A DNA stretch of 44,092 nt, taken from Rhizaria sp. SCN 62-66. Taxonomy: Eukaryota. A model generated the notes under the pieces. It was given only the letters and a program-made list of their open reading frames with translations. It was not told the origin of the DNA and ran no database searches. The stretch is from NCBI GenBank assembly GCA_001724265.1, contig MEDY01000259.1, forward strand, positions 1 through 44,092, written 5' to 3'. Positions 3,924 to 23,895 of this stretch are shown here, in pieces (position 1 is the stretch's first letter; each line of letters begins with the position of its first letter). Made by a program: the position numbers and the translations under genes.

Positions 3924-5372
3924 ATGGCCGCTGTGCGTCCTGTTCTGACGGTTTACAAGCTCAACGGCGAGAAGGCCGCGCAGGTTAAGACCCCCGCCGT
4001 CTTCACTGCCCCGATCCGTAAGGATGTTGTGCACTTTGTGCACACCAACATGGCCAAGAACCGCCGCCAGGCCTACGCCGTTAAGCGCTTCGCCGGTCTC
4101 GGCTACTCCGCCGTCTCCTGGGGCACTGGTCGCGCCGTCGCCCGCGTTCCCCGTATCTGCGGTGGTGGTACTTCCCGCTCCGGCCAGGGTGCTTTCGCCA
4201 ACCAGTGCCGTGGTGGTCAGCGCTTCCAGCCCACCAAGATCTGGCGCCGCTGGCACCGCAAGCTGAGCAAGAACGTCAAGCGTTACGCCGTCGCTGCCGC
4301 TCTTGCCGCTTCCGCCGTGTCGTCCCTCGTGATGGCCCGCGGCCATGCTATCGGCAACGTCCGTGAGATCCCTTTTGTTGTTGAGAACGAGATCGAGTCG
4401 ATCCGCAAGACTAAGGCTGCTGTTGCTGCCCTTAAGACTGTCGGTGCTGACGCCGATGTCATCCGTGCCAAGAACACCCGCAACATCCGCACTGGTGTCT
4501 CGAAGCTCCGTGGCCGTGCCCACACTGGCCGCAAGGGTCCCCTGATCGTCTTCGCCAACGACAACGGTATCACCCGTGCCTTCCGCAACCTCCCCGGTGT
4601 CGAGCTCGCCAACGTCAAGGACCTCAACCTCCTCAAGCTCGCCCCCGGCGGCACCATCGGCCGCTTCATCATCTGGACTGCCGGCGCCGTCGCTGAGCTC
4701 AACAACGTCTTCGGCACCACCACCACCCCTTCTAAGCAGAAGGCCGGCTACACCCTCCCCTACGCCCCCGTCACCAACGCCGACATCGACCGCATCATCA
4801 ACTCCAACGAGATCCAGTCCAAGCTCCGTGCCCCCAAGAAGACCTACGCCTACGTCCAGCGCCACAACCCCCTCACCAACTTCGCCGCCAAGGTTGCCCT
4901 CAACCCCTACGCTCTCTTCGCCCGCCGTGCTGAGGTCGCCAAGCAGGCCGCTACCGCTGCCTTCAAGAAGACCCAGCTCGAGGCCGCCCGTGCCGGCAAG
5001 CCCGTCCCCCTGTCTGCCTCCCAGATCAAGAAGCGCGCTCAGAAGCTTGCCACCCGCAAGCTCTCCAAGATGAACTACAAGCGCTCCGTCCTTGGCCAGC
5101 ACATCTCTGCCGAGGAGACCCGTGCCTCCCAGTTCAACATGGAGACCTACAAGAAGGCCATGAAGGCTACCGTCAAGGGTGCTTCCCCCAAGGCCTTCGA
5201 CATCGCCACCTACAAGGTCCCCGCCGCTGTCACCAAGAAGGTTGAGCACGCTGCCAAGATCGCCGCTGCTGTCGCTAAGAAGAACATCGCTGGCCGTCAG
5301 TACTACGCCAAGCAGGCCAAGGTCAAGGCTGCCGCTGCCGCCAAGGCTGCCACCGGTGCCAAGAAGAAGTAA
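3924..5372 (+). CDS. RPL4: 60S ribosomal protein L4 (uL4), 482 aa, with long K/A-rich C-terminal extension
   Basis: MAAVRPVLTVY...PAVFTAPIRKDVVHFVHTNMAKNRRQAYAV, SWGTGRAVARVPR, FQPTKIWRRWHRK, LNLLKLAPGGTIGRFIIWT. Single coding exon, probably with a 5'UTR intron. Stop TAA. Confidence 0.97.
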   Translation: MAAVRPVLTVYKLNGEKAAQVKTPAVFTAPIRKDVVHFVHTNMAKNRRQAYAVKRFAGLGYSAVSWGTGRAVARVPRICGGGTSRSGQGAFANQCRGGQRFQPTKIWRRWHRKLSKNVKRYAVAAALAASAVSSLVMARGHAIGNVREIPFVVENEIESIRKTKAAVAALKTVGADADVIRAKNTRNIRTGVSKLRGRAHTGRKGPLIVFANDNGITRAFRNLPGVELANVKDLNLLKLAPGGTIGRFIIWTAGAVAELNNVFGTTTTPSKQKAGYTLPYAPVTNADIDRIINSNEIQSKLRAPKKTYAYVQRHNPLTNFAAKVALNPYALFARRAEVAKQAATAAFKKTQLEAARAGKPVPLSASQIKKRAQKLATRKLSKMNYKRSVLGQHISAEETRASQFNMETYKKAMKATVKGASPKAFDIATYKVPAAVTKKVEHAAKIAAAVAKKNIAGRQYYAKQAKVKAAAAAKAATGAKKK

Positions 5373-5885: not shown

Positions 5886-6451
5886 TCAGGAGAAGAGAGC
5901 GAGCTCCTTGTACCGGCCTTGAATAGGCACCACTACGCCCACTGGCTTCGTCATAGTCGCAGGCGCCGTACTCGTGTCTGCTGGAGAAGCGGCTTGACTT
6001 CGAGGCGACGTGGTCGCGGCGGCAACTTGGCTTTGAACCCACGGCTGCGCATCGCTATTGCGCCACATGAAGCTGTTGACGGTCGCCGTCGCTGTGTTCG
6101 TAGTGTCCATGCTTTCCGCACTGTCTAGACCGCTGTTTGCGCGAGGGCTGGAGCTGGTCCACGCGAGCGCGTTGGCGATCTCAGCCGCAAACAGGTGCCA
6201 CGTCAGCTTCAGCCCCATGACCGTGAGCCGGGACACGCACCGCAGCCGACCGTGGGCAGCGCTGGGTGCGTTGTGACTCGGGCCAGAGGTGTTAGGGTGA
6301 CTGTGGCCGTGGGAGTGACCGTGGGAGTGACTGTGAGAGTGGGAGTGAGAGCTGCAACTGCCCGAGTCGCAGCTCGCGTTGCCGGAGCTGTGGCTGTGGC
6401 TGCAGCTTTCAGAGCCGCAACTCGACTTGCTCACGTTGCTGCTGCTGTCGG

Positions 6452-6523
<72 letters not shown>

Positions 6524-8610
6524 CGTCGGTGTTTTCAGGGAAGCAGAATGCAGGCAGCAGAAACGACGGCGTGACGGCAGCACTCGGCCACTGTTCCTGC
6601 TGTTGCTGATGTTGATGTTGCTTCGACGGCAATTGCGACTGCGCCAGTGCGCTCGCCGCAGCTGTTTTTGCGAGTGGAGTCAGAGTGTAGCGACCGAACG
6701 ACCAGTTCAACACGTAGGGCGCAACATCATTCTCCGAGTCTGCTTCCCCAGTCGTCAGAGCTCCCGCCTCACTGGCAGTGCTCCCAGTCGCGTCCGCGCT
6801 GCCCACGGTCACCCCGGCGGGGCTGGTGACCGTGAGCGCAGGCAGCGCCGCCGCCTTGGAGAGCCACACGACGCCCTTGATGCGGATGACGCCGTCGTAG
6901 TACGACACGGTTCGCAAAAAGGACTCCCAGTGAGACTTGGAGAAGCCCTTCTCAACGGAAGCAGTGCTTTTAGAGTCACTACTACTGCTGATGTCGCCAC
7001 CGAGCCATTCGATGTGGCCCACAACGACGTCGTCCTCGTCGTCCGACTGCCCTCGTCCCTGTCCCTGCCCCTGTCCCTGCTGCTGCTGCTGCTGCTGCTG
7101 CTAAGCCTGGTCCTGGTGACTGTGGTAGTACTCGCGCTGCTGCTGCTGCGGCTCGCCGTCGCTAAACGTTGCGATCTGCTCACGGTCGCTCACATCCTCA
7201 GTCTCAGCCCCAGAGTGCGATTGCGCCTGAGAGCGCGTCTTGTTGCGCGAGTCATAGCCGAAGACAAGGGCGGCCGGCACGCGCCCGCGGTCACTGCGCA
7301 GCACGTGCGCGTCGGGGTTCAAGTCGTACACAGCGTCTAGAACCTAAACAAGATGGGGGTTCATGACAGACAAGTAAGTTGCTGTCAGACTTGGTGCAGG
7401 AACGTCGTATTGCAGTTGACTGATCGCAATACAGAGAACATTTCACATCTCGAAATTACAATATAAGACACAAAATAGCAATTACATAGTTGACATTGAA
7501 ATGATTCGACTGATTTCAAGAGATAGGTTCTGAGGACTGCCTGATACGTACCTTTTCGACGTCTTTCCCGGGCGTCTTCTCCGCGAGCTCCCACTTGTTG
7601 AGCACGATGAGGTCGTTGTACTTGGCCTGCATGCGCGCCGTGGACGACGTGTCGGAGTACGAAGTGAAGTTCATCGCATCGATCACGCAGATAACGCTGT
7701 CGAGAGCAACAGGGTGAGCTATACAGTCGCAATAAGCGAAAATAGAGTCAAGTGTTGAATGAGATAAAAGTCGTTTATAATAGTCGTATAAACGATTGAT
7801 AGCCACGAATAATATAGATTATCCAAGTAATCGACAAATATATGAAATTTTCTCATGAAACGCATATACGCCGCAAAGTCGATGATTATGTGCGTACTTT
7901 TGGCGACGCGGTCGATTTCGTGCACAAGCGGGGTGGGGAAAGCGGAGCCAGACGTCTCGATAATAATGCGGTCGGGGTACACACGCTTCGCGGGCGCAGC
8001 AGTGCTCACAGTAGCATCCGCAACAGCTGTTGTATCGGCAGTGTCGGCAGAGACTGAGGAGGCATGAGTCGCAGCGGCGGTGATGAGGTTCGTGGTGTTC
8101 GAGCTCGCGACGCCCGTCGTGATCATAGCGGTCATCGTGACGGTGCCATCCTCGGTCACGCTCTCCGTGACCACAGTTCCCTCGCCGGGCTTGACCTCCG
8201 TGTTAATTTCGGCCTCGACGCCGTTGTCGGCGAGCTCGATAAGCGCGTCGCTGAGGCGGCCGACGAGCGTGCAGCAGAGGCAGCCGTTGAGGAGCTCGGT
8301 GACGCGCGCGACCGACGAGCGAGAGCCTAAAAGCGAGTCAACGGCATTAACACCAAACTCGTTTTTAAGCCAAACAGCGCTAAGAGAGAGAAAGAAAACA
8401 AGGGTGAGTCGAAGTGTTGGGCAACAGTGAGGGCTTCAGAGCATAGTATCTTGATTGAGTGAGGACGTACCGATAGTCAGAGCGCGTGCCTGGAGGACTA
8501 ATCTGGTCAAGCAGCGACATAATCATCGTTGTTTTGCCAGCGCCAAGGTATCCATTGACAATCGTGATGGGAATGCGGGGCCGCTCCGCCTCAAGTGACG
8601 AGGTCGACAT
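5886..8610 (-). CDS. COG0523/CobW-family (ZNG1/CBWD-like) metallochaperone GTPase, 4 exons, about 748 aa if TAG 7101-7103 is sense
   Basis: Exons 8610-8471, 8379-7898, 7718-7552, 7343-5886. Motifs: Walker A GYLGAGKTT, NEFG, GCLCC, IIIETSG, G4 LNKWE, CobW_C-like VIRIKGVVWL...VLNWSFGRY, His-rich tract. Stop TGA. Confidence 0.9.
6453..6523. repeat. (GCTGTT)n hexamer repeat encoding (Asn-Ser)n in the CobW protein
   Basis: Tandem gctgtt units visible in the sequence; the minus-strand ORF reads NSNSNSNSNSNS. Confidence 0.85.
7101..7103 (-). other. In-frame TAG (putative Gln) in the CobW gene
   Basis: Reads CAG GAC CAG GCT TAG CAG CAG CAG CAG CAG CAG CAG. ORFs 7101..7331 and 5886..7022 share one frame. 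Confidence 0.85.
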
Positions 8611-8970: not shown

Positions 8971-9847
8971 TCATCGATAGTAGCTGTTGCTGTTGCGACC
9001 AGGTGCAGCAGCTGTTGCCGCTGCGGATATCGCTGCGGTGTTGATTGCTTGTACCCACTGCACCACCAGCGCATCACTCCTCGCACGCAGAGTAAGCACT
9101 TCAGCTTCGCTAGTCTCTCCTCCGGCCTCGTTGCCGTTGTCGTCATTGTAGCCTCTCATGTTCCCGCTTGCAGAAGCACTCGCTGAACGCAGTAGTAACA
9201 AGGACCGTGGACGGCGCGGATGCGGAAGAGCACGGAGCAGTTGCGCAAACGGCAACGCACCATCAGGCTATAAAAGACACAATAAGACACAAAAACAAAC
9301 AAAAATGTAAGTGACAAGCAGTAATTGATGAATGTGATTACTGAGACTTATATGAAAGCGAGAGGCTTTAATTTTCTTTTGATATAATCATAAAAATATA
9401 TCCAAAATGGTTTTTCAAGGTGATATCGAAACTATTAACCATTTGTGATGACTAAGATGAGTATTCATGTCAGTTATGCGTACCCTCCCTTCGACCTCAG
9501 CCCCCGTCTCGCCCGCCCCCACCGCCGCCACCGCCGCCCTCGCAGCCGACTGGGCCCGCTCGTACGCCGCGACCGTGGCCCGCGGTGCGGAGCGGTGCGG
9601 CTTAACTAACCGCCACTGCAGTCGGGTACAGTCAGTGTCGGTCCAGACGGAGACTGGGACAGGGACGACCGAGCTGCTCACGGTCGCCGCGCCGCCTGGC
9701 TTCGTCCCGGGCTTGGTGACTGTAGAGAGCGAAGGCAGGATAAGCTCAAACGTGTCGCCGGTGAGCAAAAGCATCTTTGTGTTAAGGTCCAACTGGGATT
9801 GCTGACGCTGCTGTTGCTGCTGTTGTTTCAGTTGTTGCTGGCGAAGT

Positions 9848-9879
<32 letters not shown>

Positions 9880-11870
9880 GTGTTGTTGCTGTTGTTGTTG
9901 CGCATGTGATTGTGAGTCCGACTGCGAGCTCAAGTTTGATTGCGACGGATTGTAGTACCCAGCCCTTAACCGCGCCAGTGCATTACCGCAGCCGCCGACG
10001 CCACTCACGCTGGCGTTGACCCTAAGAGGGGACGAGCCGAACACGGACGCCGCTCCTGCTGCTCCAGTCACTGACACTGACGCACTCTCTCGCTGCGACT
10101 GCTGCGCCTAAGCCTGTGCCCGTGGTTGAGACTGCAAGTGCAACTGCACGTGTGCGCGTGACTGAGCTTGCGCGAGCGACGACTGCACGAGCGCGTCGAG
10201 CGCGTCGTTGTTCGAAGTGAGGCCGCGCAGGTTTGTCGGCGCCCACAGACTACGGGGCTGTTGCTGCTGCTGCAGTTGTAGTTGTAGTTGCAACTGCTGT
10301 TGCTGCAGCTGTTGTTGCTGCTGCTGCATGCCAAGTCCTCGTGACAGCGGCCGTTGGCCCCTCTGAAGACGCTGTTGCTGCAACAAGAGCTCTTGTTGCT
10401 GCTGTTGCAGTTGCAGCTTCTGTTGATTGTTGAGTGAGACTGATGAAACAAGCGAGGATGCAGCTCGGCTAAAACGCTCTTCTTCCTCTTTCTTCAGCTT
10501 GGATTCGTAGAGAGCGTTTTCGCGCGCGAACAAAAGTTTGGCCGCCTGAAGCTTTGCGTGCAGCGTGCGCCTCGTGTCCAGGTTGCTATGAACAGCGTTG
10601 GCGTCTGCACTTGCGTCGCCTGTCAAATGACTGTAAGCACTCGCAGCAGTATTACGAGGCGTATCGATCACAATGTGGTTGCTGCTGCTCCTTGTGTTCA
10701 CGTCAGAGTACGCATTATTGTTGAAGTTGTGTGTGTAGTGATCGTTGTCATCGTCATCGTCATCACATCCGTCAGTCACATTGGCGCTGGCGCTCCCATT
10801 GGCACCGGCACTGGTGCTTGGCCAAGCCCCAGGCGCAGTCCGGCCCCTCTGCGCAGCGTATGCAGCGCCGGAGTTCAAGGCGGTCGCAGCAGCGTCTGCA
10901 TGCCTCTTGTGCGCTGCTGCTGCTGCCGCCGCAGCCGCCTCCGCCGCCCCGGTCGTAGCTGCGGCCGAAGCAGTAGCTGCTGCGTTGCTGCCCGTACCAG
11001 AGTTAGACTGCTGCTGTTGTTTCTGTTGCTTTTGCGCTGCTTTGAATGCGTAATACCCCGCAGCAGCAGAGGCAGCACCAACGCTCTCATAATCGCCGTT
11101 GTTGTTGTTGTCACTGGCGTTGTCGCTGTTCGCAGCGGCGGCAGAATGGCCACGGGCAGCACTATTAACAGCGGAAAAGTGGCTGCGACTCTCTGATGAG
11201 TGACCGTGTACAGCAGCAGGGCGCACTCGTAAGCACAGTGAGTCATACACGAGCTTCTGCTGCTGGTCCGACAAGAGCGTGTAAGCATCGGAGATTGCAA
11301 CGAACGCGGCAGAAGCAGTCTCGGTGGTAGCAGGGTCACTGTCAGTGAGCTTATCGGGGTGACAAAGCAACGCGAGTCTGCGTGATTTCAACAACGAGTC
11401 GACACAAAGCGAGACACAATGAATAATCACAAGTCAGAATAAAGAGAAGTTGTGGGTAAGAAGCTCGTCTTCAGAATTTTGACAGAGATAAGAAACCAAA
11501 CGGAGTACTCAGGCGTATTGCAATATATAAAACTACGTTAGGTATACCATATCCCACTTGAATGAAAGAAATTAAGATATTTGCGTGGGGTATGCGAGGA
11601 AACGTACTGGCGGTACTTGCTCCTGACTTCGCTCACAGTTGCGCTTTGAGGCAGCCCTAAAACAGAGTAGTGGTCGACAAAAGCCACGACTTGCTGCGGC
11701 TATTGCTGCTGATGTTGATTGTACTGCCATTGGTGATAGCCCGCGTTCGCGTTGACAGCGGCGGCGAACGAGGACGCTGACGAAGGCAAAGGACGGAGTG
11801 GCAGGGACTGTGGCTGCGCCGCGCGCGTGACGCGGGCGATTTCCGCTAAGGCAACCGCTACAGCGCTCAT
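8971..11870 (-). CDS. J-domain (DnaJ/Hsp40) protein with Q/A/N-rich linker and C-terminal PH-like domain, 3 exons, about 817 aa with two in-frame TAG
   Basis: Exons 11870-11608, 11377-9484, 9267-8971. J domain: DHYSVLGLPQSATVSEVRSKYRQLALLCHPDK...FVAISDAYTLLSD...YD. PH-like end: RLQWRLVK...DGALPFAQL...LTLRARSDALVVQWVQAIN. Stop TGA. Confidence 0.85.
10108..10110 (-). other. In-frame TAG (putative Gln) in the J-PH gene
   Basis: Reads QSQPRAQA*AQQSQ. ORFs 10108..11430 and 9415..10077 are in frame, 10 codons apart. Confidence 0.8.
11700..11702 (-). other. In-frame TAG (putative Gln) just upstream of the J domain
   Basis: Reads CAA CAT CAG CAG CAA TAG CCG CAG CAA GTC GTG GCT TTT GTC GAC CAC TAC. 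No in-frame ATG lies between the TAG and the J domain. Confidence 0.8.
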
Positions 11871-12228: not shown

Positions 12229-13092
12229 TCACTGTTGTTGAGACTCGTCACCAGTCCACAGTGACGACGACGATGCTGACAGCAAACGCCGCGCAAAGTT
12301 AAGCCGCCACTCCGCACGACGATGACGAGCAATATCATCATTCACAGCACTCGTACTCGCATCAGCAGCAGCAGGAACAGCAGCAAGAGTGTTGTGAGAG
12401 TTGTTATTGTTGTTGCTGTTGCTGTTGCCTTGGTTATCGGGGTGACCGTGGTCAGCAGGAAGGCGCAGCAGGCGGCTTAGGTTAAAGCTATGCGGCGCAA
12501 CGACAGTCCTCACGGAGCCACCCCACTGAGTCAGGTCGTTGATGTAAGTGCCCACGTTGTCGCTGTTGCTCGAGTAAGTAGCGGCACAGTCAGAAGCGCA
12601 TAGAATAGCCGACATTGAGGTGCCGTTGCTCGTGGTACTTACATTGCCTTCAGTGCTACTTACACCGCTGCCAGAGCCACTATTATCACTGTCAGTGCTC
12701 GCAGCACTTACGCTGGAGCTGGCGGCACTGAGACTGTCGGCGGAGAGCGGGGGAGATGTGAGGCCTAAGTACCCCCCAACTCTATACCAAGCGTAGGCAA
12801 AGTAACCTTGCTGCTGCTGCTGCTCTAGTTGAGATTGCACAGTAACATTACTCTTGTCAGCGATCGTGTTCGAGTCCGCGTTCACAGTGCTCAGAACAGC
12901 AGTCTCTCGCAGGGAGCCAGGCTGCTCCTCCAGCTTCACATCGGGCTCCTGCTTCTGTTCCTGCTTCTGTTCCTGCTTCTGCTCTAGCGTTTGCTCTTGC
13001 TCGAGCTCCATGCTGCTGAACACGGCCACGGGCCGCGCCCGCGCCCTCACGACCGCGGCCGCCGCCGCAGCCTCGGCCTCCGCAGCGGCCAT

Positions 13093-13123
<31 letters not shown>

Positions 13124-16100
13124 GCGCGGGCGCGGGCAGCGAGCGAGAGCGCGAGGAAGTACGCAGGACGCAGCAGCGGGGCATACAAGAGCAGGGAGCG
13201 GGTCGCGCTCTCGCTGCCAACAGCCGCGCTCTCGCTGCGAGCAGCCGCGCTCTCGTTGTCGCGGCCGCGGCTTGCGCTAACCCTAGCGTCGCTGTTGCCG
13301 CCGGCAGAGGCAGAACTCGTCACGGGCGCCACTGCCGCTGCCGCCGCTGAGACACCATCAGTGGGGGCAGAGGCAGAGGTAGTTATAGCGCCGAAATCAC
13401 TGCTCGGCGACCCACTCACGCTCGTGGCGCCCGTGTCAGCAATGCGCGCCGCCTGCGCCGGAGCTGTAGCGCCGTTGTTGCTGCTTCCGACACCTGGGGT
13501 GCCGCCGAAGCTAAGGATATACGACAAGAACGACTGAGACTGCTGCGCCTGCGGCTGTGTCTTAGCCAGCGACTGTACCGACGGTGACTGTGAGTCAGCA
13601 ACCGCAACTGCCTGTGAGCTCTTCGCAACAGCTGACTGCAAGTCAGCGTCGAGGAGGCTAGACTCGTTGCCGTGAGTTTGGGCGTTCACGGACGCGTTGC
13701 CGCTCACAGAGACAGAGTCCGTGGCAATGACTGCGGCCACGCTGTCGTTCCCGCCCGCACTCGCATTGCCACTCGCGCTGGCGCTTGCACTGGGGCCAAC
13801 GCTGCCACTGCTGGCGATCGGAGCGAGGACGTCGTCGTTGGTGATGTTGCCCTGAGCCGTCGCACTACTCCTCGCGGTGTTGCCACCTGCGGTGCTCTCG
13901 TCTGTGTCATCAGCACCGCTCTGATTATGATGATGATGACTATGGTTGTGGTGAAGGTGGTTGTCGTGCTTGTGCGTGTGTGTCAGCAGCCGGATGAGCG
14001 GCCCGAGCCCGGGCAGCTCCCCGGGCTCCGGGTCAGTGACGACAACGCCGACGCAGCCGCAGTCGCCCGCGCTCTGCACCAGGTGCTCACGGTCGCTCAG
14101 CGGCCGCGCGCGGTCGCGCTCAGAGTCGCCGTCGCAGTCCTCAGCATTGTCGTCATAATCGTCGTCGTCATCATCGTCGTCGTTGTTGTTGCTGAAGGTA
14201 TTGTTGCTGAGATCGTCGAGCTGGGCACTTAGCCGGCGGTGTAAGTGCCGCGCCGCGCCGGTTCTCTGTAAGTACCCGTCGTGGTAGTCCACAGGCGAGT
14301 CGCCGCAGCAGAGGCGGCTCGACTTGATGAGGCTGGGTAGACCGACGCTGACGGCCCAGTGCGGCAGCGCGACCGCGACGACGACCTCGTCGCTGGCACT
14401 GCGAGCGCCGCCATCAACCGAGCTCTCACCCGCATTCGCACCCGCACTCGCGCTGGCGTTGGCGCTGACAGGGTCGGCATCGCTCAGGTTCGCGGGGCGA
14501 GCAGTGGAGCTAGCGACGGATGCGTTGGCGTTCAAGATGCCGATGTCGGTCGCGATGTTGTTGGTGTTGTTGTTGCTGATGCTCTTATTGTTCCCATTCG
14601 CATTCACAGTCAAAACAGTCATGCTCTTGTTGTTATTGTGAGTGGCTGCGGCGCTGTCAGTGGCGCCCACGGTGGCAGCGATCGCCGCCGTGGTCGAGTC
14701 GTGGATCGCGGCGGCCGCGGCGGCCACGGCGGCGGCGGCGGCCGCGGCCGTCGTGTGCTTCGCGTACTTGCCTCCACCAGTCGCACTGTTTACACTCGCG
14801 CTGAGAGTGTTTGTGCTGTTACTAGCGGTAGCGTTCGCGAGTATAGCATCCTTCGTGGTAGGCGCGGCCGCAGCTGCATCGACGTCGGCGCTAACCCCCA
14901 AGCTAGCGTTGCTGTTGCTCTTGATGCTGTGCGCGTTAGCAGTGTCTTCGTTGTCGGTGCTGGGGGTCGCCGCGTTGACATTGCAGATGGCAGCGGTCAG
15001 CACAATCATCACTCGCGTGCGCGCGCGCGCGAGCTCATCGTTGAGGTTGATGTCTAAGGGGGCACTTATGTCTACGGGGGTACTTACACCACCAGCGCTC
15101 TCGGTCGCAGTCGTCGCGGCAGGCATAGCTGTCGCAGCATCAGTTGCAACAGCGTTCAAACTCGAGGTTGCATCAGCCACAGCCAAAGTCACTGCCGCAG
15201 ACGCAGCAGCGGTCGCAGTGTCGTCACAGGCGGTGCGCGCTTGAGCTGGTACGCTTGCACCGACCTCAGCGTTGTTGCTGGCATCACTGCTAGCGTCAGT
15301 GTAAGTACTTGCGCGGTCCATGTAAGGGCTGTATCCACTTAGCAGCGACTCAATCATGTCCACCGAGGAGGACCCCGCCATGTAAGCGCCCTCATCCTCG
15401 TCTGTCTAAGGGCCGCGCGCGCGGCGCGTTTGGCTGTAGGTGAACAAGAAGGGGTTCAGACTGTAGTCGTCGGTCAGGGGCTCGAAGCGCACGACACCGC
15501 CACCGCCGCCGCCGGCACTCTTGGCGGCGACGGCGGCGTGGGCGCTGGCTGCAGCTGCTGCAGCCGCCGAGGCAGCAGCGGTGGCGGCGGCAGTGGCAGT
15601 AGCGTCGGCATCGGCCGCCGCAGCGGCCAAGGCTAGCGCAGCGCCCTTCTTTGCGCCCGCACTCGCATCAGCGCCAGCGCCAGTGTTGGCCGCGGCGCTC
15701 TTGTCCAGACTCTGCGACTGCGCAGACTGCGTAGACTGTGTCGACTGCGTGGGTTGCGAAGAGAAGAGCGACCACGTCATGTTGAGCAGCGACTCCACCA
15801 CGCTTACACCGTCGTCGCGTGGAGCACTTACCCCGTCTAAGGGGGCACTTATACCTGCCACTGGAACAGCAGCAACAGCACTTGCACTCGCAGCGTCAAC
15901 AGCGTTATTCGCGCCCACACTGCTGTCGACAACGTTGGCGTTTGAGCTGCTACTGGTGGTGCTATCGGACTCCGCCGCCGTCACAGCGGGCTTCGCCGCC
16001 GCTGCCGCGCTGCTGCTCGGCTGCGCGACGGCGCTGCTGGTGGTGTGCGCGACGGCGAGGTGGCTGTGCGCGGACACGAGGTGCTCGAGGGCCTGCGCGA

Positions 16101-17086
16101 CGAGCAGCAGCCCCGACGTTGGCGATAACAGCGAGGGGGGCAGCACGACTGCCAGCGCCGCCGCCACGGCCAGCGGGTCCGAGCTCGACGCCAGAGTCGC
16201 CAACGCGTCCGCCAGAGACGTCGCGCCAGCGGCACCGTCGCCGTCGTCGCCGTCGCCGTCGCCGTGACTGTCAGCGTCAGCGGCGTCGGGGTGGTGGCCG
16301 TGGTGGGGCAGGAGTAGAGCGGAGTTGAGCTGTGAGTGCGAGTGCGGGTGCAGCGAGACAACGCCGCCAGACTTGCCGTTTCCCGCCTTGCTGGCCCGCC
16401 TCGCGCTACTCTTGGCCTTGCCGCCGCCGCTCTTTGCGTTCAGGGAGCTGTTGCTGTGTGAGTTGTTGCTGTAGAGCGCCGTGGGCGACGAGAAGTCGAC
16501 CGAGGAGAGCATGTCGCGCTCGTACCGGGCCGCTTCCTCGGCCTCCTGCGCGGCCTTAAGCCGCTGGTAGGCGTAGTAGTCCTCCCAGCGCTGACTGGAC
16601 ATGTCGAAGGCGGCGCCGAAGCTGGCCAGCTCGCGGTAGGCGAAGGACCGGACGCGGATGCTGCCCTTGAGAATCGCAGTCTGCGGGTGCACGCGGTTCA
16701 TGTACACGTCCATGAACGTGTCCATGGCGCAGGAGCACTCGCAGGTAACCTGTGCGCGGGCAAAACAGGTCGGGAAGGTGAGTGGCGAAGAGAGAACGGG
16801 AGCAGTGCGCGAATGTGGGGTGAGTGAGATTCAAGCGGGGAACGAGGAGGCTTTGCATTTGCGACTGGGTAGAGACGGAGTCGAGCGCGGAACGTACGTG
16901 TTTGTCTTCGGGAACGTCTTTATAGATAATGACCCCTGTCTCGGGGGTGACGCGGATGGCCCTGACCTCTTCTTTGCCGTCAACATCAACGCGGAACATG
17001 ACGGTGCCCTTGTAGGGCCCGCCCGCGAGATGGGCGAATCGCAGGAAGTCCATCGTCTCGTCAAGCTCTTTTACGCGGTCTGTCAT
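12229..17086 (-). CDS. Large protein with N-terminal SCP2 (sterol carrier)-like domain and long low-complexity tail, about 1570 aa with one in-frame TAG; start uncertain (possible extra exon from ATG 17247)
   Basis: Exons 17086-16898 and 16749-12229. YKGTVMFRVD...VTCECSCAMDTFMDVYMNRVHPQTAILKGSIRVR resembles the SCP2 pattern. Stop TGA. Confidence 0.7.
15406..15408 (-). other. In-frame TAG in the SCP2-domain gene
   Basis: Reads RARGP*TDEDEGAYMAGSS. ORFs 15406..16725 and 12229..15381 are in frame, 8 codons apart. Confidence 0.75.
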
Positions 17087-17876: not shown

Positions 17877-20800
17877 ATGGCGAGTCTTGAGCTGTACACG
17901 CTTGCCGGCGAGGTTTTGCGTGACTTTCTGCTCTCCAAGGGTTCGCTCAAGGTTCGTTTTACACCACTCATTCGGTTGCCCAATGCTATCCTAATTCGAC
18001 ATGCCGGTCGACCTAAGCAATATGAATTCTACTCCAGACTAAACTCAATGCCTATATATGTGTTATTGCATCTTTTTGTTGTTGTGCACTTTCACAGAAC
18101 CTTTGTTACGCTGCGCGCATTCCCCCCGCGTTCCGCGCGCCGATCATCTCCCTGGTCAACAACACACTGCGCTTCCGCCCGCTGCTGCTCTCCATCCTCA
18201 CCACCGCACACATCCCCGGCTTCCGCCTCGCAGACGTCGTCAAGTACGAGGCCAACGCGCGCTTCAACGCTCTTCTGGCCCCCGCCGCGAACAACAGCAG
18301 TTCTGCTAGCGCTGGTACTGGCGCTTCTGTTGACGACGACGACGAAAACGGCGGTGTGGAGCTCCCCACGGGCGCTGCGGCCCTTGAAGGCAGCTCGCAG
18401 GCCTCCTGGCAGCCCGCGACCGTTGCTGTTACTCTTAACGTGACTAACAATAATAACGCTGGTGCAAACGCCAACGCTGGCCACAAGGGACAGCAGCACA
18501 ACAACAAAAGCACCTCGTCGACCGTCAAGATCCGCTTCGAGCGCGAGGCGATGCTGATTCTGGCCTACGATATGCTCTTCGGCCAGGGCCTGCCGCGCTT
18601 CGCGGCCGCCAACAGCGCCGCTCCCGGTACTGGTGCCGCTCACGGTCACCCCAAGGGTTCCCATGGCTCTCACAACAACAACGCCGCCGGCGGCGGCGGC
18701 GGCGGCGACCGGAGCGATCCGTACGGCTTCAAGGCCGCGGCTCGTTTGCTCTCGACGCAGCCGTGCCCGCTGCCGCCGCCGCCCGCGGGCAGCCACGCGT
18801 TTGCGGTGACGCCCTCGACCTACACCAAGCCCGCCTCCAAAGCGAAGGAGAGTCAGGTAAGCAAGGACGATAAAGACAGCAGTGCAAGCGCTGATGCTGC
18901 GGACGCTGCCGCGAACGACAGCATCGTCGCGGGCAGCAGCAGCAACAGCTGCCACAGCAACGCGACGGCCATCACAGCTTACGGCCTGCATCTGACCCAG
19001 GCTGCGGCGGCCGGCGCGCTGTCGGTGCTGGTTGACTGGGGCGAGAATAAGGCCCGCGAGGCCGCGGCGGCGGCGGCGAACCCCGCGGCCAACACCAATG
19101 CGAACAACAACAACAAGTTCAACAACAAGAGCTACAACAACAAGTTTGGCAACAACGCGAAGCACACCTCGAACGCTAGTTCCAGCACCGGCGGCGGCGG
19201 CGGCGGCTTCGGCAGTGCCAGCGTCAGTGAGGTAAAGACGGCGATCGTGCGCGCCGCGCAGGCAGTGTGCCGAGTGCTGGCGCTGCCGCTGCCGCCGGCG
19301 CTGGCTGCGCTGGACCCGCAGGCCGCGGCGGCGGGCCCCAGTCCCCACCCATACGCCCACGTGAACAACAACAGCGGCGGCGGCGGCGCGGGCGGCGGCG
19401 CCAACGGCGGCGGTGGCGGCAACAAGGGCTTCAACAAGGGCTCTGGCGGCAACAACAATAACAACAGCAGCGGAAACAACGGCGGCAATGTGGGTAAAGT
19501 GTGGTTTTTGGGCCCGTTCCCCCCCGTCGCCAGCGCCAGCAGCCCCGCACACAGTCTCAAGCTGCCTCTCACCACGATCGTTCCCAGCGCCCCCTCGACC
19601 AGCAGCAAGGCCAACGTCAGTGCCAGCGCCAGCTCGAGCTCTCCTGCGAGTGCGGGTGCAGCGTTGGTGTCACCGCCGCCGCTGCTGGTGGGCTCGCTGC
19701 AATACACTGTGGCCGCCGCTGGCCCCGCGGTGACCGGCGACGACGTCAACAACAACCTGAACACAAAGCAACACTTTAACAACAACAACAACAAGTTTGC
19801 TGGCGCGAGCGGCAAGGATAGCAAGGATAACTTGGCCCCCCGCGACTGGCCTCTGTCGAAGCGGCTTCACTTCCTGCTCGCCTCCGTCGCCCGCCGGCAC
19901 CCAAACTATCCCAATAGCGCCGCCCACGACACTTCCAAAGGCGGCGGCCAGAGCGGCGGTCAGAGCGGCGCGATGACTGTGCGTACCGAGAGCGTGATCA
20001 CCGACGCCGCCCTCGACCCCGCGCACGCGGTGACCGTGGGCCACGCCGCCGCGCTGCTGCTTGCGGCGGGCAGCGCGGCCACTGCCTCCGGAGTGGGCGC
20101 CAACGTCCGCGGGCTGCCCGCCGGTCTGGGCGCCGTCGACCCGTACGCGCACATGCTGCCGCCGGCCTTGGTGTTGGCGACCTCGCAGTCGGGGCCCTGG
20201 AGCACGGTCAGCTCGCGCCGGCCGCGCTACCTGCGCGTCAACACGCTCGTCGACGTCGCCACCGTGGCTAAAGCTGCGATCGAGCTCGCCAACACAGTCC
20301 CCAGCGTCAAAACCAAGGGCAAGCACAGCGCGGACGCTGCTGCCGCGGACGCTGCGGTCGCGGCCGCGGCGAAGGAGGCTGCCGACGCGACCAAGAAGCA
20401 CGGCAAGAAGGGCAAGAACATGGCCGACAGCGACGACGACAGCGACGACGCCACTGACAGTGAAGGCGATGACGATGACGACGACGACGGCGAGAATGAG
20501 AACAACGAGTCCGACGCCGAGTCCGCGTCGAAGCCCAACTCTAGCGAGGCCAACGCAGGCGCGTTCGGTTGCGGCGTGGCCGATGCGCTGGCTCCGCTGC
20601 TAGGCCCGCGCGCCGCGGCGCTGCTCGCGGCTGCGTTGCGCGCGCGGTCGCTGCCCGCGGTCACGCTACTGCTCACGGCGCTCGTCGCGGCCGCGCGCGA
20701 CGCCGCGGCGCGCAAGATCAGGGCCGCGCTGCTCCAGCAGGGCCCCGCGAAGGCCGCGTCTGCTGCTAACGATGCGAACGTTGCTGGTGTCGATAACGTG

Positions 20801-23800
20801 TTCGCCGAGATGGGCGCCGAGTGCATGGACCGGCTGCTCCGCCTGCCTTCTAACAGCGACATTGCTGGTTCGAGTGTTGTGAGCGCCAGCGACGCCGCGC
20901 TGCTGCTGCTGCCCGCGACACACACGCATCTGCCGCTGGCGCGCGTGCTGCTCGCCGTCGCGGGCTACACAGAGGCTGACACGTACACCGTGCAAAGTGC
21001 TGTAACGAACAACAACGCGGTGAGCGCGACGGCTAGTGTCGCTAGCGTCGGGGCCGACGCTGCCGGCGCGAGCGCGAGCGCGAGCGCGAATGCGAGCGCG
21101 GGCGCCGTCGTGCCGGTGCCCAGTGTGTGGGCCTCTGGCGGCGACGGCCCCTGGCGCAACCCCCCCGCCACCCACACCGCTGCGAACGCTCGCTCTGAGA
21201 AGCCGACAATTGCTAGTGCTAGTGCGAGCGGCAATCATGGTAGCAACAGTGCGGTCGTCGCGCCTGCCGCGAACGTGTACTGGCTGGACCCCGGACCCCT
21301 CTTCCCGTTCCTGCTTACGTTCCCGCCCTCGGCCGCAGCGAAGCCGCCGTCTCTGACCCTCAGCCAGAGCAGTGGCAGAGGCGGCAACGTGCTGCCCGTG
21401 GCGCTGCTGGGCACCGCGCTCATCACGAGCGGCGCGCTGATCCCGCAGGACAAGGCCTCCTGCTTCACGCCCGCCGCGCTGCTGGGCCCAGAGCTGCACG
21501 GCATGTGGGGGCAGGTGCTGCCGCAGGTCGCCGCCGCAAGCGATCCCAGTCAAGCGAGCTCTACCGAGGCGCAAATTGACGACGACGTTGACGACTTGAT
21601 CGACGCGTGCGCTGCGCCCGGCAACAAGACGAGTTTCGCCACTGCGCTGACGGACCAAAAGGTGAAGCAGCACGCCTGGCTGCGCTATCTCGCCGCCCGC
21701 GCGCTGCCGAGCAACGGCGAGAACAGCAAGAGCAGCGCTACCGATGGCGCGAGTGCGAGTTCCAGTGCGGTGACGAGTGATGCTGAGAAGCTGAGCCGTC
21801 TCGAGTCGCTGCTCCGTTCTATCAACACCAACGGCAGTGCTTCTGAGAAGAGTGCCAGTGAGACCAAGACCGTGTTCGCGATCGAGCGCAACCACTCCCG
21901 CGCGCAGATGCTGCGCCGCCGCATGGCCCACAGCCACGCGCTGCCCGCCAACGCCGGCAAGCACGGCAGCAGTGACTCCGCGGCGCCCGCTAACGACGGC
22001 GACAGCAAGCTCTGGCGAAGCATCTACGTCGTCACGGACGCGACCAAGCTCCAGCGCGCCGCCACCACCGCCGCCGCCGCTGCCGTTGACGCCAGCTCTA
22101 GCTCGAGCTCTCATGCTGTTGACGCCGAGGTGAGCGCCGCGATCGCCGCCGCGGCCGCGTTCGGCGGTGTGTTCAACGCGAAGACGGCCGCGGTGACGGT
22201 GCTGCATACGTCCTTCTTCCTGCTGGATCCGCAGTCGGCGCAGTTCGCGGCCGTGGGCAGCGTGATGCTCGACCCCTCGTGCTCGGGCAGCGGCAACCCG
22301 TCGCTCGACGCGCTCTTCGCCACGGGCGGGCTCCAGGGCGACTACGAGGACGGCGGCTGTGGGTTCCACTACGACACCCGCAACAGCACTGGCACCAGCC
22401 CTAGCGCCAACAGTCACACCGCTGTGCCGTACAACGCGCTGCTGGCGAACGCCGTGGCGATCGCGCTGGACCCCAGCTCGAAGCGGCCCCGGTCCAAGCA
22501 GCCTCCCTACCGCACGCCCGCGGTGCCGGCGCCCGCGGACGCGCTTAACTCGCCCGCGCCGCACCCTTGCACGCACCTGGGCACGTCGCTGCACGTGCGC
22601 TCGCTCAGCGACCTGCAGACAGCGCTGCTCGCGCACGCCGCGCGCTTCCCCGCTGTGCGCGCCATCGGCTACTCGACGTGCTCCATCTTCACCCGCGAGA
22701 ACGAGGGCGTCGTCATGCGCTTTATGCCGCACGTACGTGATCTTTCTCTTGTAATACGATATGACGACGAACTTTACCTTTGAAACTCATTGTATTTTGT
22801 ATTTATAGTGAAATATCAACCGATTTGAAATCGCTAACTTTGACTAACTTTGATTTTTGTTTTTGCTGTCCTCTCATGTCTGTGCACGAATAGGCTGCCG
22901 CCGCCGGCTTCGCGCTGGCCCCCGCCCTTCCCCGGCAGGCTTGGCGCCGCCGAGGCATCACCGTGGCCCCCGCCGAGCAGCTGCAGGGCGTCGTCACCGC
23001 CGCCACCGCCGCCGCCACCGCGAGCGTGCTCTCGCAAGCCGCCGCCGCCGCCGCCAGTGGGGGTAAGTGCGACGCGGTTCTGGGACAGCTGCTGCCGCAG
23101 GCGCCGCTTGCGCTCGCGGCCCGCCTGCTGCACTACGACGGCAAGAGCACCGGCCCTATCACGAGCTCGACTGACTGCGACATCGACGACGACGACGAGT
23201 GCCAGAGGGCCATCGCCGCCGCGGAGGCTGCCGGTGCGGCCGAACAGGCTGCGCTCGTGGCCAAGGGCACGGCCCTGTTCTGGCGCCTGTCCGGCGTCAC
23301 CATCACCAACGCAAGCCTCACTCCGGCCGTGACCGCGACTGCTGCTGACTCCAGCTCTAGCTCCAGCTCCGGCTTCCGCTCCGGCTCTGGTTGCGACGCG
23401 AGCAGTGCTGTGGGCGTGCTGCCGGTGGTCTCGTTCCCGGGCGGGCTGCTATGCTCCCGCGGCGACCCCGACCACGACTCGATGGGCGGCTTCTTTGTCG
23501 CCGTGTTCCGCCGGCTCAGCGCCCCTCTAGGTGCCCCGCACACCGCGGCGCAGAAGAAGAAGCGGGCGAGCAGCGCTGTGATGCTGCGCAAGTACTTGGA
23601 CCTGTCTAAGTACCAGGGTCCTGGTATTAAGTCGGAGGCGCTGGCAGCCAAGCTCGCGAGCGGAGTGCTCGGACGGCAGGTTGCAGTAAGCAGCAGTGAC
23701 AGCGACATCGGTGCTGTTGATGCTTCTGTTGCTGCTGATGATGGCGAGGAGCAGAAGGAGTCTAGCGTTGATGTTGCGAAGAGTAATAAGAAGCGGACTC

Positions 23801-23895
23801 TTGAGTCTAACACTGTTGCAAAGAGCAATGCCACTGCTATCAGTGGTGACAAGAGCAACTCAATTGCTCCCACAATCAAGAAGGCTCGCAGGTGA
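17877..23895 (+). CDS. NSUN5: NSUN5/Rcm1-like rRNA cytosine-C5 methyltransferase (RsmB/NOP2 family), 3 exons, about 1903 aa
   Basis: Exons 17877-17951, 18098-22732, 22894-23895. Ordered motifs: LYTLAGEVL..KGSLKNLCY, PRYLRVNTL, LIPQDKASC, IDACAAPGNKTS, LDPSCSGSG, YSTCSIFTRENEGVV, LAPALP..W.RRG, GFFVAVFRR. Stop TGA. Confidence 0.88.

Follow-up and report, generated by a model that had tools for sequence, protein, structure and literature searches.

To our knowledge, the codons UAA and UAG are in nearly all cases reassigned jointly. Nuclear codes in which UAG alone is recoded are described, in the available parts of the sources cited here and below, with leucine (exLh and marine phyllopharyngeans) or serine (Scotinosphaera) as the amino acid (PMC11687900; PMC10553269), and with glutamine, UAA remaining a stop, in Iotanema spirale, Hartmannula sinica, Trochilia petrani and Protocruzia tuzeti (PMC5304391; PMC11687900). 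Glutamate at UAG occurs elsewhere in these sources only together with UAA as lysine (PL0344) or UAA as glutamate (PMC11687900; PMC10553269). Here, we analyze a stretch of 44,092 nucleotides (the window; contig MEDY01000259.1, positions 1 to 44,092, Rhizaria sp. SCN 62-66) belonging to a 34.9-Mb eukaryotic assembly (GCA_001724265.1), in which a gene for a CobW-family GTPase is interrupted by an in-frame TAG. The sequence of this gene and of other parts of the genome indicates that UAG has almost certainly been recoded as a sense codon in the nuclear genome, and that it probably stands for glutamate, as a rare codon, with UAA and UGA retained as stops.

The in-frame TAG of the CobW-family gene

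The gene model comprises four exons separated by GT-AG introns and encodes 748 residues, and 404 codons are open between the TAG and the terminal TGA. Its features are:

8471..8610, minus strand: exon 1, with the ATG and the Walker A motif (Pfam cobW, 24.4 bits)
7898..8379, minus strand: exon 2, with the CLCC metal motif and ETSG (Pfam cobW, 44.6 bits)
7552..7718, minus strand: exon 3, with the NKxE motif (Pfam cobW, 34.8 bits)
5886..7343, minus strand: exon 4, which contains a His-rich tract and low-complexity inserts besides the TAG and ends in TGA at 5888-5886
7101..7103, minus strand: in-frame TAG, codon 344 of 748, classed as internal by the coding model
7077..7100, minus strand: (CAG)8 poly-Gln run within a low-complexity linker
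6846..6938, minus strand: partial CobW_C-like segment 3' of the TAG (PF07683, 17.2 bits against a cut-off of 22)

The cobW Pfam domain scores above its cut-off in exons 1-3, and thus the nucleotide-binding domain of the family is present. In the assembly sequence, the minus strand reads GCT TAG followed by (CAG)8, with the TAG at 7103-7101; the initial annotation of this site had the TAG and its GCT context right but counted seven CAG codons. It had also held that a stop here would cost about 400 residues including the CobW_C-like domain. The 404 open codons agree with the former, but the CobW_C match is partial (model positions 14-44) and sub-threshold (E 0.0045). Taken as a whole, exon 4 yielded no Pfam family, no homologue and nothing meaningful in the PDB; an RNA contig of run X5 lies over it at 6596-6882, weakly, at a depth of about 3. 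A Cys/Ser/His-rich tract in the C-terminal part of the protein (6270-6400, minus strand) is likely to be a metal-binding segment.

Under the standard code, in-frame TAGs of this kind would be sequencing errors, nonsense alleles, parts of pseudogenes or splice acceptors. Two properties of the CobW site are in line with this explanation, namely that the base at 7103 is known from the assembly alone, and that a GT at 7193 could open an in-frame intron of 93 nt ending at the TAG. The two GTs nearest to the TAG (7131 and 7120) would indeed shift the frame if used as donors, as the initial annotation had stated, but it had overlooked the in-frame one at 7193. The candidate intron that starts there has a GC content of 62%, a pyrimidine fraction of 0.45 and a coding-like score, whereas 99 predicted introns have a mean GC content of 38% (at least 60% in only one of the 99) and a pyrimidine fraction of 0.69, and 54 of them carry the donor GTACG. 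An intron covering the codon, the objection that the annotation itself had foreseen, was therefore rejected on composition. The simplest origin of the TAG would be a CAG-to-TAG transition in the poly-Gln linker, resulting in a harmless change from Gln to Glu and a full-length CobW protein. Because such a transition in an unconstrained linker would be both expected and tolerated whether UAG is read as Gln or as Glu, the site is weak evidence on the amino acid's identity.

UAG is a sense codon throughout the genome

Stop codons that follow clearly coding sequence were classified with a hexamer coding model in about 940 kb of the 34.9-Mb assembly. The model was seeded partly on frames of the window, and its calls contain noise: one TAA "end", if not more, actually runs out of an intron. 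The gene ends comprise 71 TAA, 45 TGA and no credible TAG. In 837 kb of this sequence, the terminal stops were 60 TAA, 37 TGA and no TAG, and the internal stops 17 TAG (two of them probably in a wrong frame), no TAA and no TGA; 5 TAG, 13 TAA and 11 TGA lay past a splice donor, and two stops were unclassed. In the additional 102 kb, 11 TAA, 8 TGA and one TAG were terminal, the last being in a wrong frame on inspection. UAA and UGA terminate, UAA being the commonest stop, and neither TAA nor TGA was found internally in the sample. A naive test based on long frames (9 TAG, 9 TAA, 18 TGA) was discarded, because antisense frames made the three stops inseparable.

After curation, 28 in-frame TAGs remained per approximately 190,000 coding codons, that is, about 1.5 UAG per 10,000. 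The conserved genes that contain one encode the release factor eRF1, a ubiquitin-conjugating enzyme, five kinases, a MORN protein and CFAP21. The base following the internal TAG was C in 12 of the 28 cases against a background of 26.5% (p 0.04); C after a stop codon is usually thought to be favourable to readthrough.

The rarity of TAG within exons would be expected if the standard code applied: exonic TAGs were absent from 10 dynein loci, from 20 ABC-domain matches and from 51 kinesin matches (the single lone TAG of the latter being a splice acceptor), and 142 kinase matches contained a lone TAG in nine cases, a lone TAA in one and mixed stops in four, with four of the nine lone TAGs being splice acceptors and five exonic. 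However, this explanation has to contend with the lack of any credible terminal TAG against 116 TAA or TGA ends, with a TAG inside eRF1, of which a single gene was found, with a dedicated tRNA with the anticodon CUA, and with the composition of the 7193 candidate intron. It also has to account for the three other in-frame TAGs of the window, which are unchanged in contigs from two further runs:

11700..11702, minus strand: TAG in frame within the first exon of a gene with a DnaJ domain; it sits in a Gln run that immediately precedes the J-domain start
10108..10110, minus strand: the same DnaJ-domain gene's other in-frame TAG, in a Gln-rich context
15406..15408, minus strand: in-frame TAG splitting a frame of 1,533 codons, in an acidic context

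Contigs of the runs X2 and X4, which stem from two studies distinct from the possible source of the window, show the TAGs at 11702, 10110 and 15408 without change, and that at 10110 is also unchanged in an RNA contig of X5, which extends only 14 bases past it. Over 10 kb, X2 differs from the window by seven substitutions and small in-frame repeat indels (12362, 12967), and thus a second strain has the same three TAGs. At the level of the genome, the standard-code explanation is largely refuted, and we regard it as highly improbable. Two of these TAGs lie in one DnaJ-domain gene (9415-11870, minus strand), both in Gln-rich surroundings and one of them ahead of the J domain.

A tRNA of glutamate type with the anticodon CUA

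A single tRNA gene whose anticodon is CUA was predicted (G000:C84:76008-76080, minus strand; the same locus as L110:1486-1558). It was called by ARAGORN, scores 58 bits with the Rfam tRNA model and has a T run downstream; the label "Pyl" given by ARAGORN reflects the anticodon, while the body matches the organism's own tRNA-Glu. Among the tRNAs found in the fetched DNA, tRNA-Glu(CUC) is the most similar (47 of 73 positions), the next best agreeing at 36 and the Gln tRNAs lying outside the top 15. The acceptor and T arms agree with tRNA-Glu. The anticodon loop has C32-A38, where the organism's tRNA-Glu has C32-C38, and it is closed by a U31-A39 pair.

A pattern scan for CUA tRNAs, which both tRNA-Gln scaffolds would satisfy, gave 11 matches (20 in the reversed control), only one of which was a true tRNA. 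A DNA search with tRNA-Gln(CUG) retrieved only five identical CUG copies and no Gln-derived CUA tRNA, and the sole matches of a Glu/Asp tRNA pattern were one stretch of coding sequence and the CUA tRNA. The match of a first tRNA pattern was rejected as a non-tRNA. No tRNA-Glu(UUC) turned up in the fetched DNA. Non-canonical T loops were noticed in tRNA-Ala(AGC), tRNA-Ala(UGC) and one tRNA-Met(CAU).

In human tRNA-Glu(CUA), the change to C32-A38 raises suppression more than 20-fold (PMC12204705). The engineered human tRNA-GluV13(CUA) shares with the tRNA described here the Glu body, the CUA anticodon, A37 and C32-A38; in contrast, the gene described here is natural, has U31-A39, which performs worst among the 31-39 pairs of the human scaffold, and lacks G30-C40 (PMC12204705). 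An engineered therapeutic Glu suppressor and a natural CUA tRNA have arrived at one and the same change, C32-A38.

These features suggest a route to the recoding. A copy of tRNA-Glu would have gained C36A (changing the anticodon from CUC to CUA) and C38A, and would be charged by glutamyl-tRNA synthetase (GluRS). At UAG, it would compete with an eRF1 whose grip on a G in the third position is weakened, and would outcompete it often enough. Decoding is probably inefficient, as suggested by the single gene found, the poor U31-A39 pair and the rarity of the codon, and UAG would therefore be selected against in conserved genes.

eRF1 has changed at the site of stop recognition and contains a UAG itself

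The only eRF1 gene found has a TAG in the middle of the N-domain, which is identical in a separate assembly (L117) that may share the sample. A metagenome scan with eRF1 revealed no close relative except this identical copy. The TAG column corresponds to human E107 and is occupied in 117 homologues by E (107), D (9) and V (1), in an alignment from which three fused top matches had been dropped and for which the query had been read with Gln. The protein carries T32S and G57S, both at positions without variation among the 117 homologues, and thus has GSS in place of the GTS motif; T58K is shared only with a relative of 84% identity (P0004). The G of UAG is bonded by Thr32, for which Iotanema has Gly (PMC5304391; PMC9161772). 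Near the stop-recognition motifs (L002:1117-1827, minus strand), M34V, L124M and K130Q were also observed, and P0004 shares V34 and K58 but has retained T32 and G57.

The location of a UAG in this particular gene raises the question of regulation. In plants, eRF1 regulates its own expression via readthrough and nonsense-mediated decay, acting through the 3' untranslated region (PMC5397192). Here, an excess of eRF1, or a too eager eRF1, would terminate translation of its own message at codon 110 or so, ahead of two introns, and such a feedback would govern how release factor and suppressor tRNA are balanced. However, the chance of finding a TAG in a gene of 437 codons at the observed rate is 3-6%, so the location is only suggestive. 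A young code, caught early with one suppressor gene and the codon still nearly absent, in which only UAG has become Glu and a feedback switch is provided by the UAG within eRF1, is an unlikely scenario.

Glutamate or glutamine

The two TAGs that were found at strongly conserved columns both face acidic residues, 116 of 117 homologues having Glu or Asp in eRF1 and 142 of 149 in CFAP21. In the latter (CFAP21/EFHB), the column comprises E in 100, D in 42 and Q in one of the homologues, with E in the closest relative, after removal of a self fragment and with a retrieval query read with Glu; with the query read as X, E faced the TAG in all five alignments shown of eight PDB matches. The counterparts of other TAGs are less telling (Asp or Ser in the ubiquitin-conjugating enzyme, varied residues in MORN, Ala in a CaMK), and the paralogue columns of the kinases are too variable to assign a residue. 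Leu does not occur at the conserved TAG columns, and the CUA tRNA is not of Leu type.

It should be noted that several observations weigh against Glu. Strong conservation was seen at no more than two sites, and the one in eRF1 is relaxed in the lineage, where the closest relative has Val and locus L121 has Gln. The neighbourhoods of 27 TAG sites fit Gln better than Glu by 14 bits. Gln-rich tracts hold six of the 28 TAGs, including the CobW site, compared with 19.4% of the Gln codons and 1.5% of the Glu codons (p 3e-6), so that the TAGs resemble Gln codons; when the four sites of the window are left out, the fraction is 3 of 24. The TAG of a NEK1-like kinase faces Gln in the best PDB match and Val in four others, the MORN domain score favours Gln by 0.8 bits, and the Pfam scores of seven domain sites sum to only +1.1 bits for Glu. 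Furthermore, C36 is a determinant for GluRS and U35 one for glutaminyl-tRNA synthetase (GlnRS) in E. coli (PMC9976931), where a tRNA-Glu suppressor inserted 59% Glu and 17% Gln (PMC12204705).

The best fit to the contexts, together with the NEK1 and MORN sites, would thus be obtained if UAG were Gln as in Iotanema, read either by a Gln-derived CUA tRNA located outside the assembly, which may be incomplete, or by the tRNA found after a takeover by GlnRS; CAG and TAG are also separated by a single transition. However, this would require a change from Glu to Gln at two columns with 99% and 95% acidic residues, the search with tRNA-Gln(CUG) found only CUG copies, and the sole tRNA obtained with the CUA pattern is Glu-like. 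We consider Gln improbable. The initial annotation had called the CobW site the strongest single one for UAG as Gln: its view that UAG encodes an amino acid has good support, but Gln is probably the wrong one, given the Glu-like body of the only CUA tRNA found and the Glu/Asp residues at both strongly conserved columns.

Alternatively, UAG might be ambiguous, with a Glu-bodied CUA tRNA that has lost C36 being charged by both GluRS and GlnRS. This would accommodate the two kinds of TAG sites seen, those at conserved acidic columns as well as those that lie in Gln tracts or face Gln, and the mixed insertion in E. coli offers a precedent. On the other hand, the engineered human tRNA-Glu(CUA) variant inserted approximately 95% Glu, the remainder being Lys and Met (PMC12204705), which argues against mixed charging, and the Gln contexts can be explained without it: many UAGs would come to lie at Gln sites under a Glu code, because CAG-to-TAG is a transition, favoured by mutational bias, and the replacement of Gln by Glu is cheap in disordered tracts. 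Ambiguity has a small probability, and UAG as Glu, with UAA and UGA as stops, is the interpretation preferred here.

The organism and other features of the window

The runs that contain the window are, where a habitat is named, wastewater, bioreactor, sludge, biofilm and fuel-cell metagenomes. The organism is probably a flagellate, because the genome encodes many dynein heavy chains and CFAP21. It was placed with one gene of the window:

3924..5372, plus strand: gene for ribosomal protein L4 (RPL4), ending in TAA, used for placement

Guttulinopsis vulgaris is the best named relative in RPL4. In a quick tree of 63 rows (the top 60 of 120 matches and three named sequences), both fall into a clade of 17 rows with an SH-aLRT support of 99, which suggests, from this one gene, a placement in the Sainouroidea (Rhizaria).

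Low-complexity inserts of Ala, Ser, Asn and Gln greatly lengthen proteins encoded in the window (18026-23895, plus strand; 12229-16830, minus strand), and an RsmB/NOP2-like methyltransferase has about 1,900 codons. The only 18S rDNA found (L191:1501-5945, in contig G000:C706) spans 4.4 kb, is AT-rich and very divergent, and has several long insertions, the first with a stretch resembling a His-Cys box. It may resemble heterolobosean rDNA, and the contig may be a contaminant of the bin.

Comparison with known codes

In the literature searched, subscription papers and supplements being outside its scope, no report of UAG as Glu with UAA as a stop was found, and the code proposed here is thus a variant not found in that literature. 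The Iotanema-type codes share with it the recoding of UAG alone, UAA and UGA as stops and a changed threonine in the GTS motif of eRF1, which is T32G in Iotanema and T32S here. They differ in that the CUA tRNA is of Glu type and the conserved TAG columns are acidic in the organism described here, and UAG makes up about 0.3% of the Glu codons (our own estimate) as opposed to about 8% of the Gln codons in Iotanema.

Within the Rhizaria, exLh (Sainouroidea) has likewise recoded UAG alone, to Leu, with UAA as a stop (PMC5304391). The RPL4 clade with Guttulinopsis indicates that it probably belongs to the same higher group as the present organism, but the tRNA found here combines a Glu body with a short variable arm, and eRF1 has kept L69, which is L69A in exLh. 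The standard code is described as most likely for Guttulinopsis and, on one gene, for Rosculus (PMC5304391); the genome paper on Rosculus vilicus contains neither "genetic code" nor "stop codon" (PMC10770858). In the unlikely scenario of a young code outlined above, the present case and exLh together would make the Sainouroidea a second hot spot for recoding of UAG alone, to a different amino acid in each. Standard annotation truncates genes of this organism, including that for eRF1. The presence of tRNA, eRF1 and codon use in one genome makes the discrimination between UAA and UAG by eRF1 (T32S, G57S) testable, and the passage of a recoding through an ambiguous stage of low efficiency can be tested directly.

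The ciliate Oligohymenophorea sp. PL0344 reads UAG as Glu via CUA tRNAs derived from tRNA-Glu, as proposed here, but UAA is Lys there, whereas it is the main stop in the present organism, which is not a ciliate and in which one CUA gene was found as opposed to ten (PMC10553269). Glu at UAG is also common to peritrich ciliates and Blastocrithidia (PMC11687900; PMC5304391; PMC12153298), in which, however, UAA is Glu as well, while no internal TAA was seen here. If true, UAG as Glu combined with UAA as a stop would be a new entry among the genetic codes and a candidate intermediate on the way either to the code of the latter group, with both UAA and UAG as Glu, or to the split code of PL0344.
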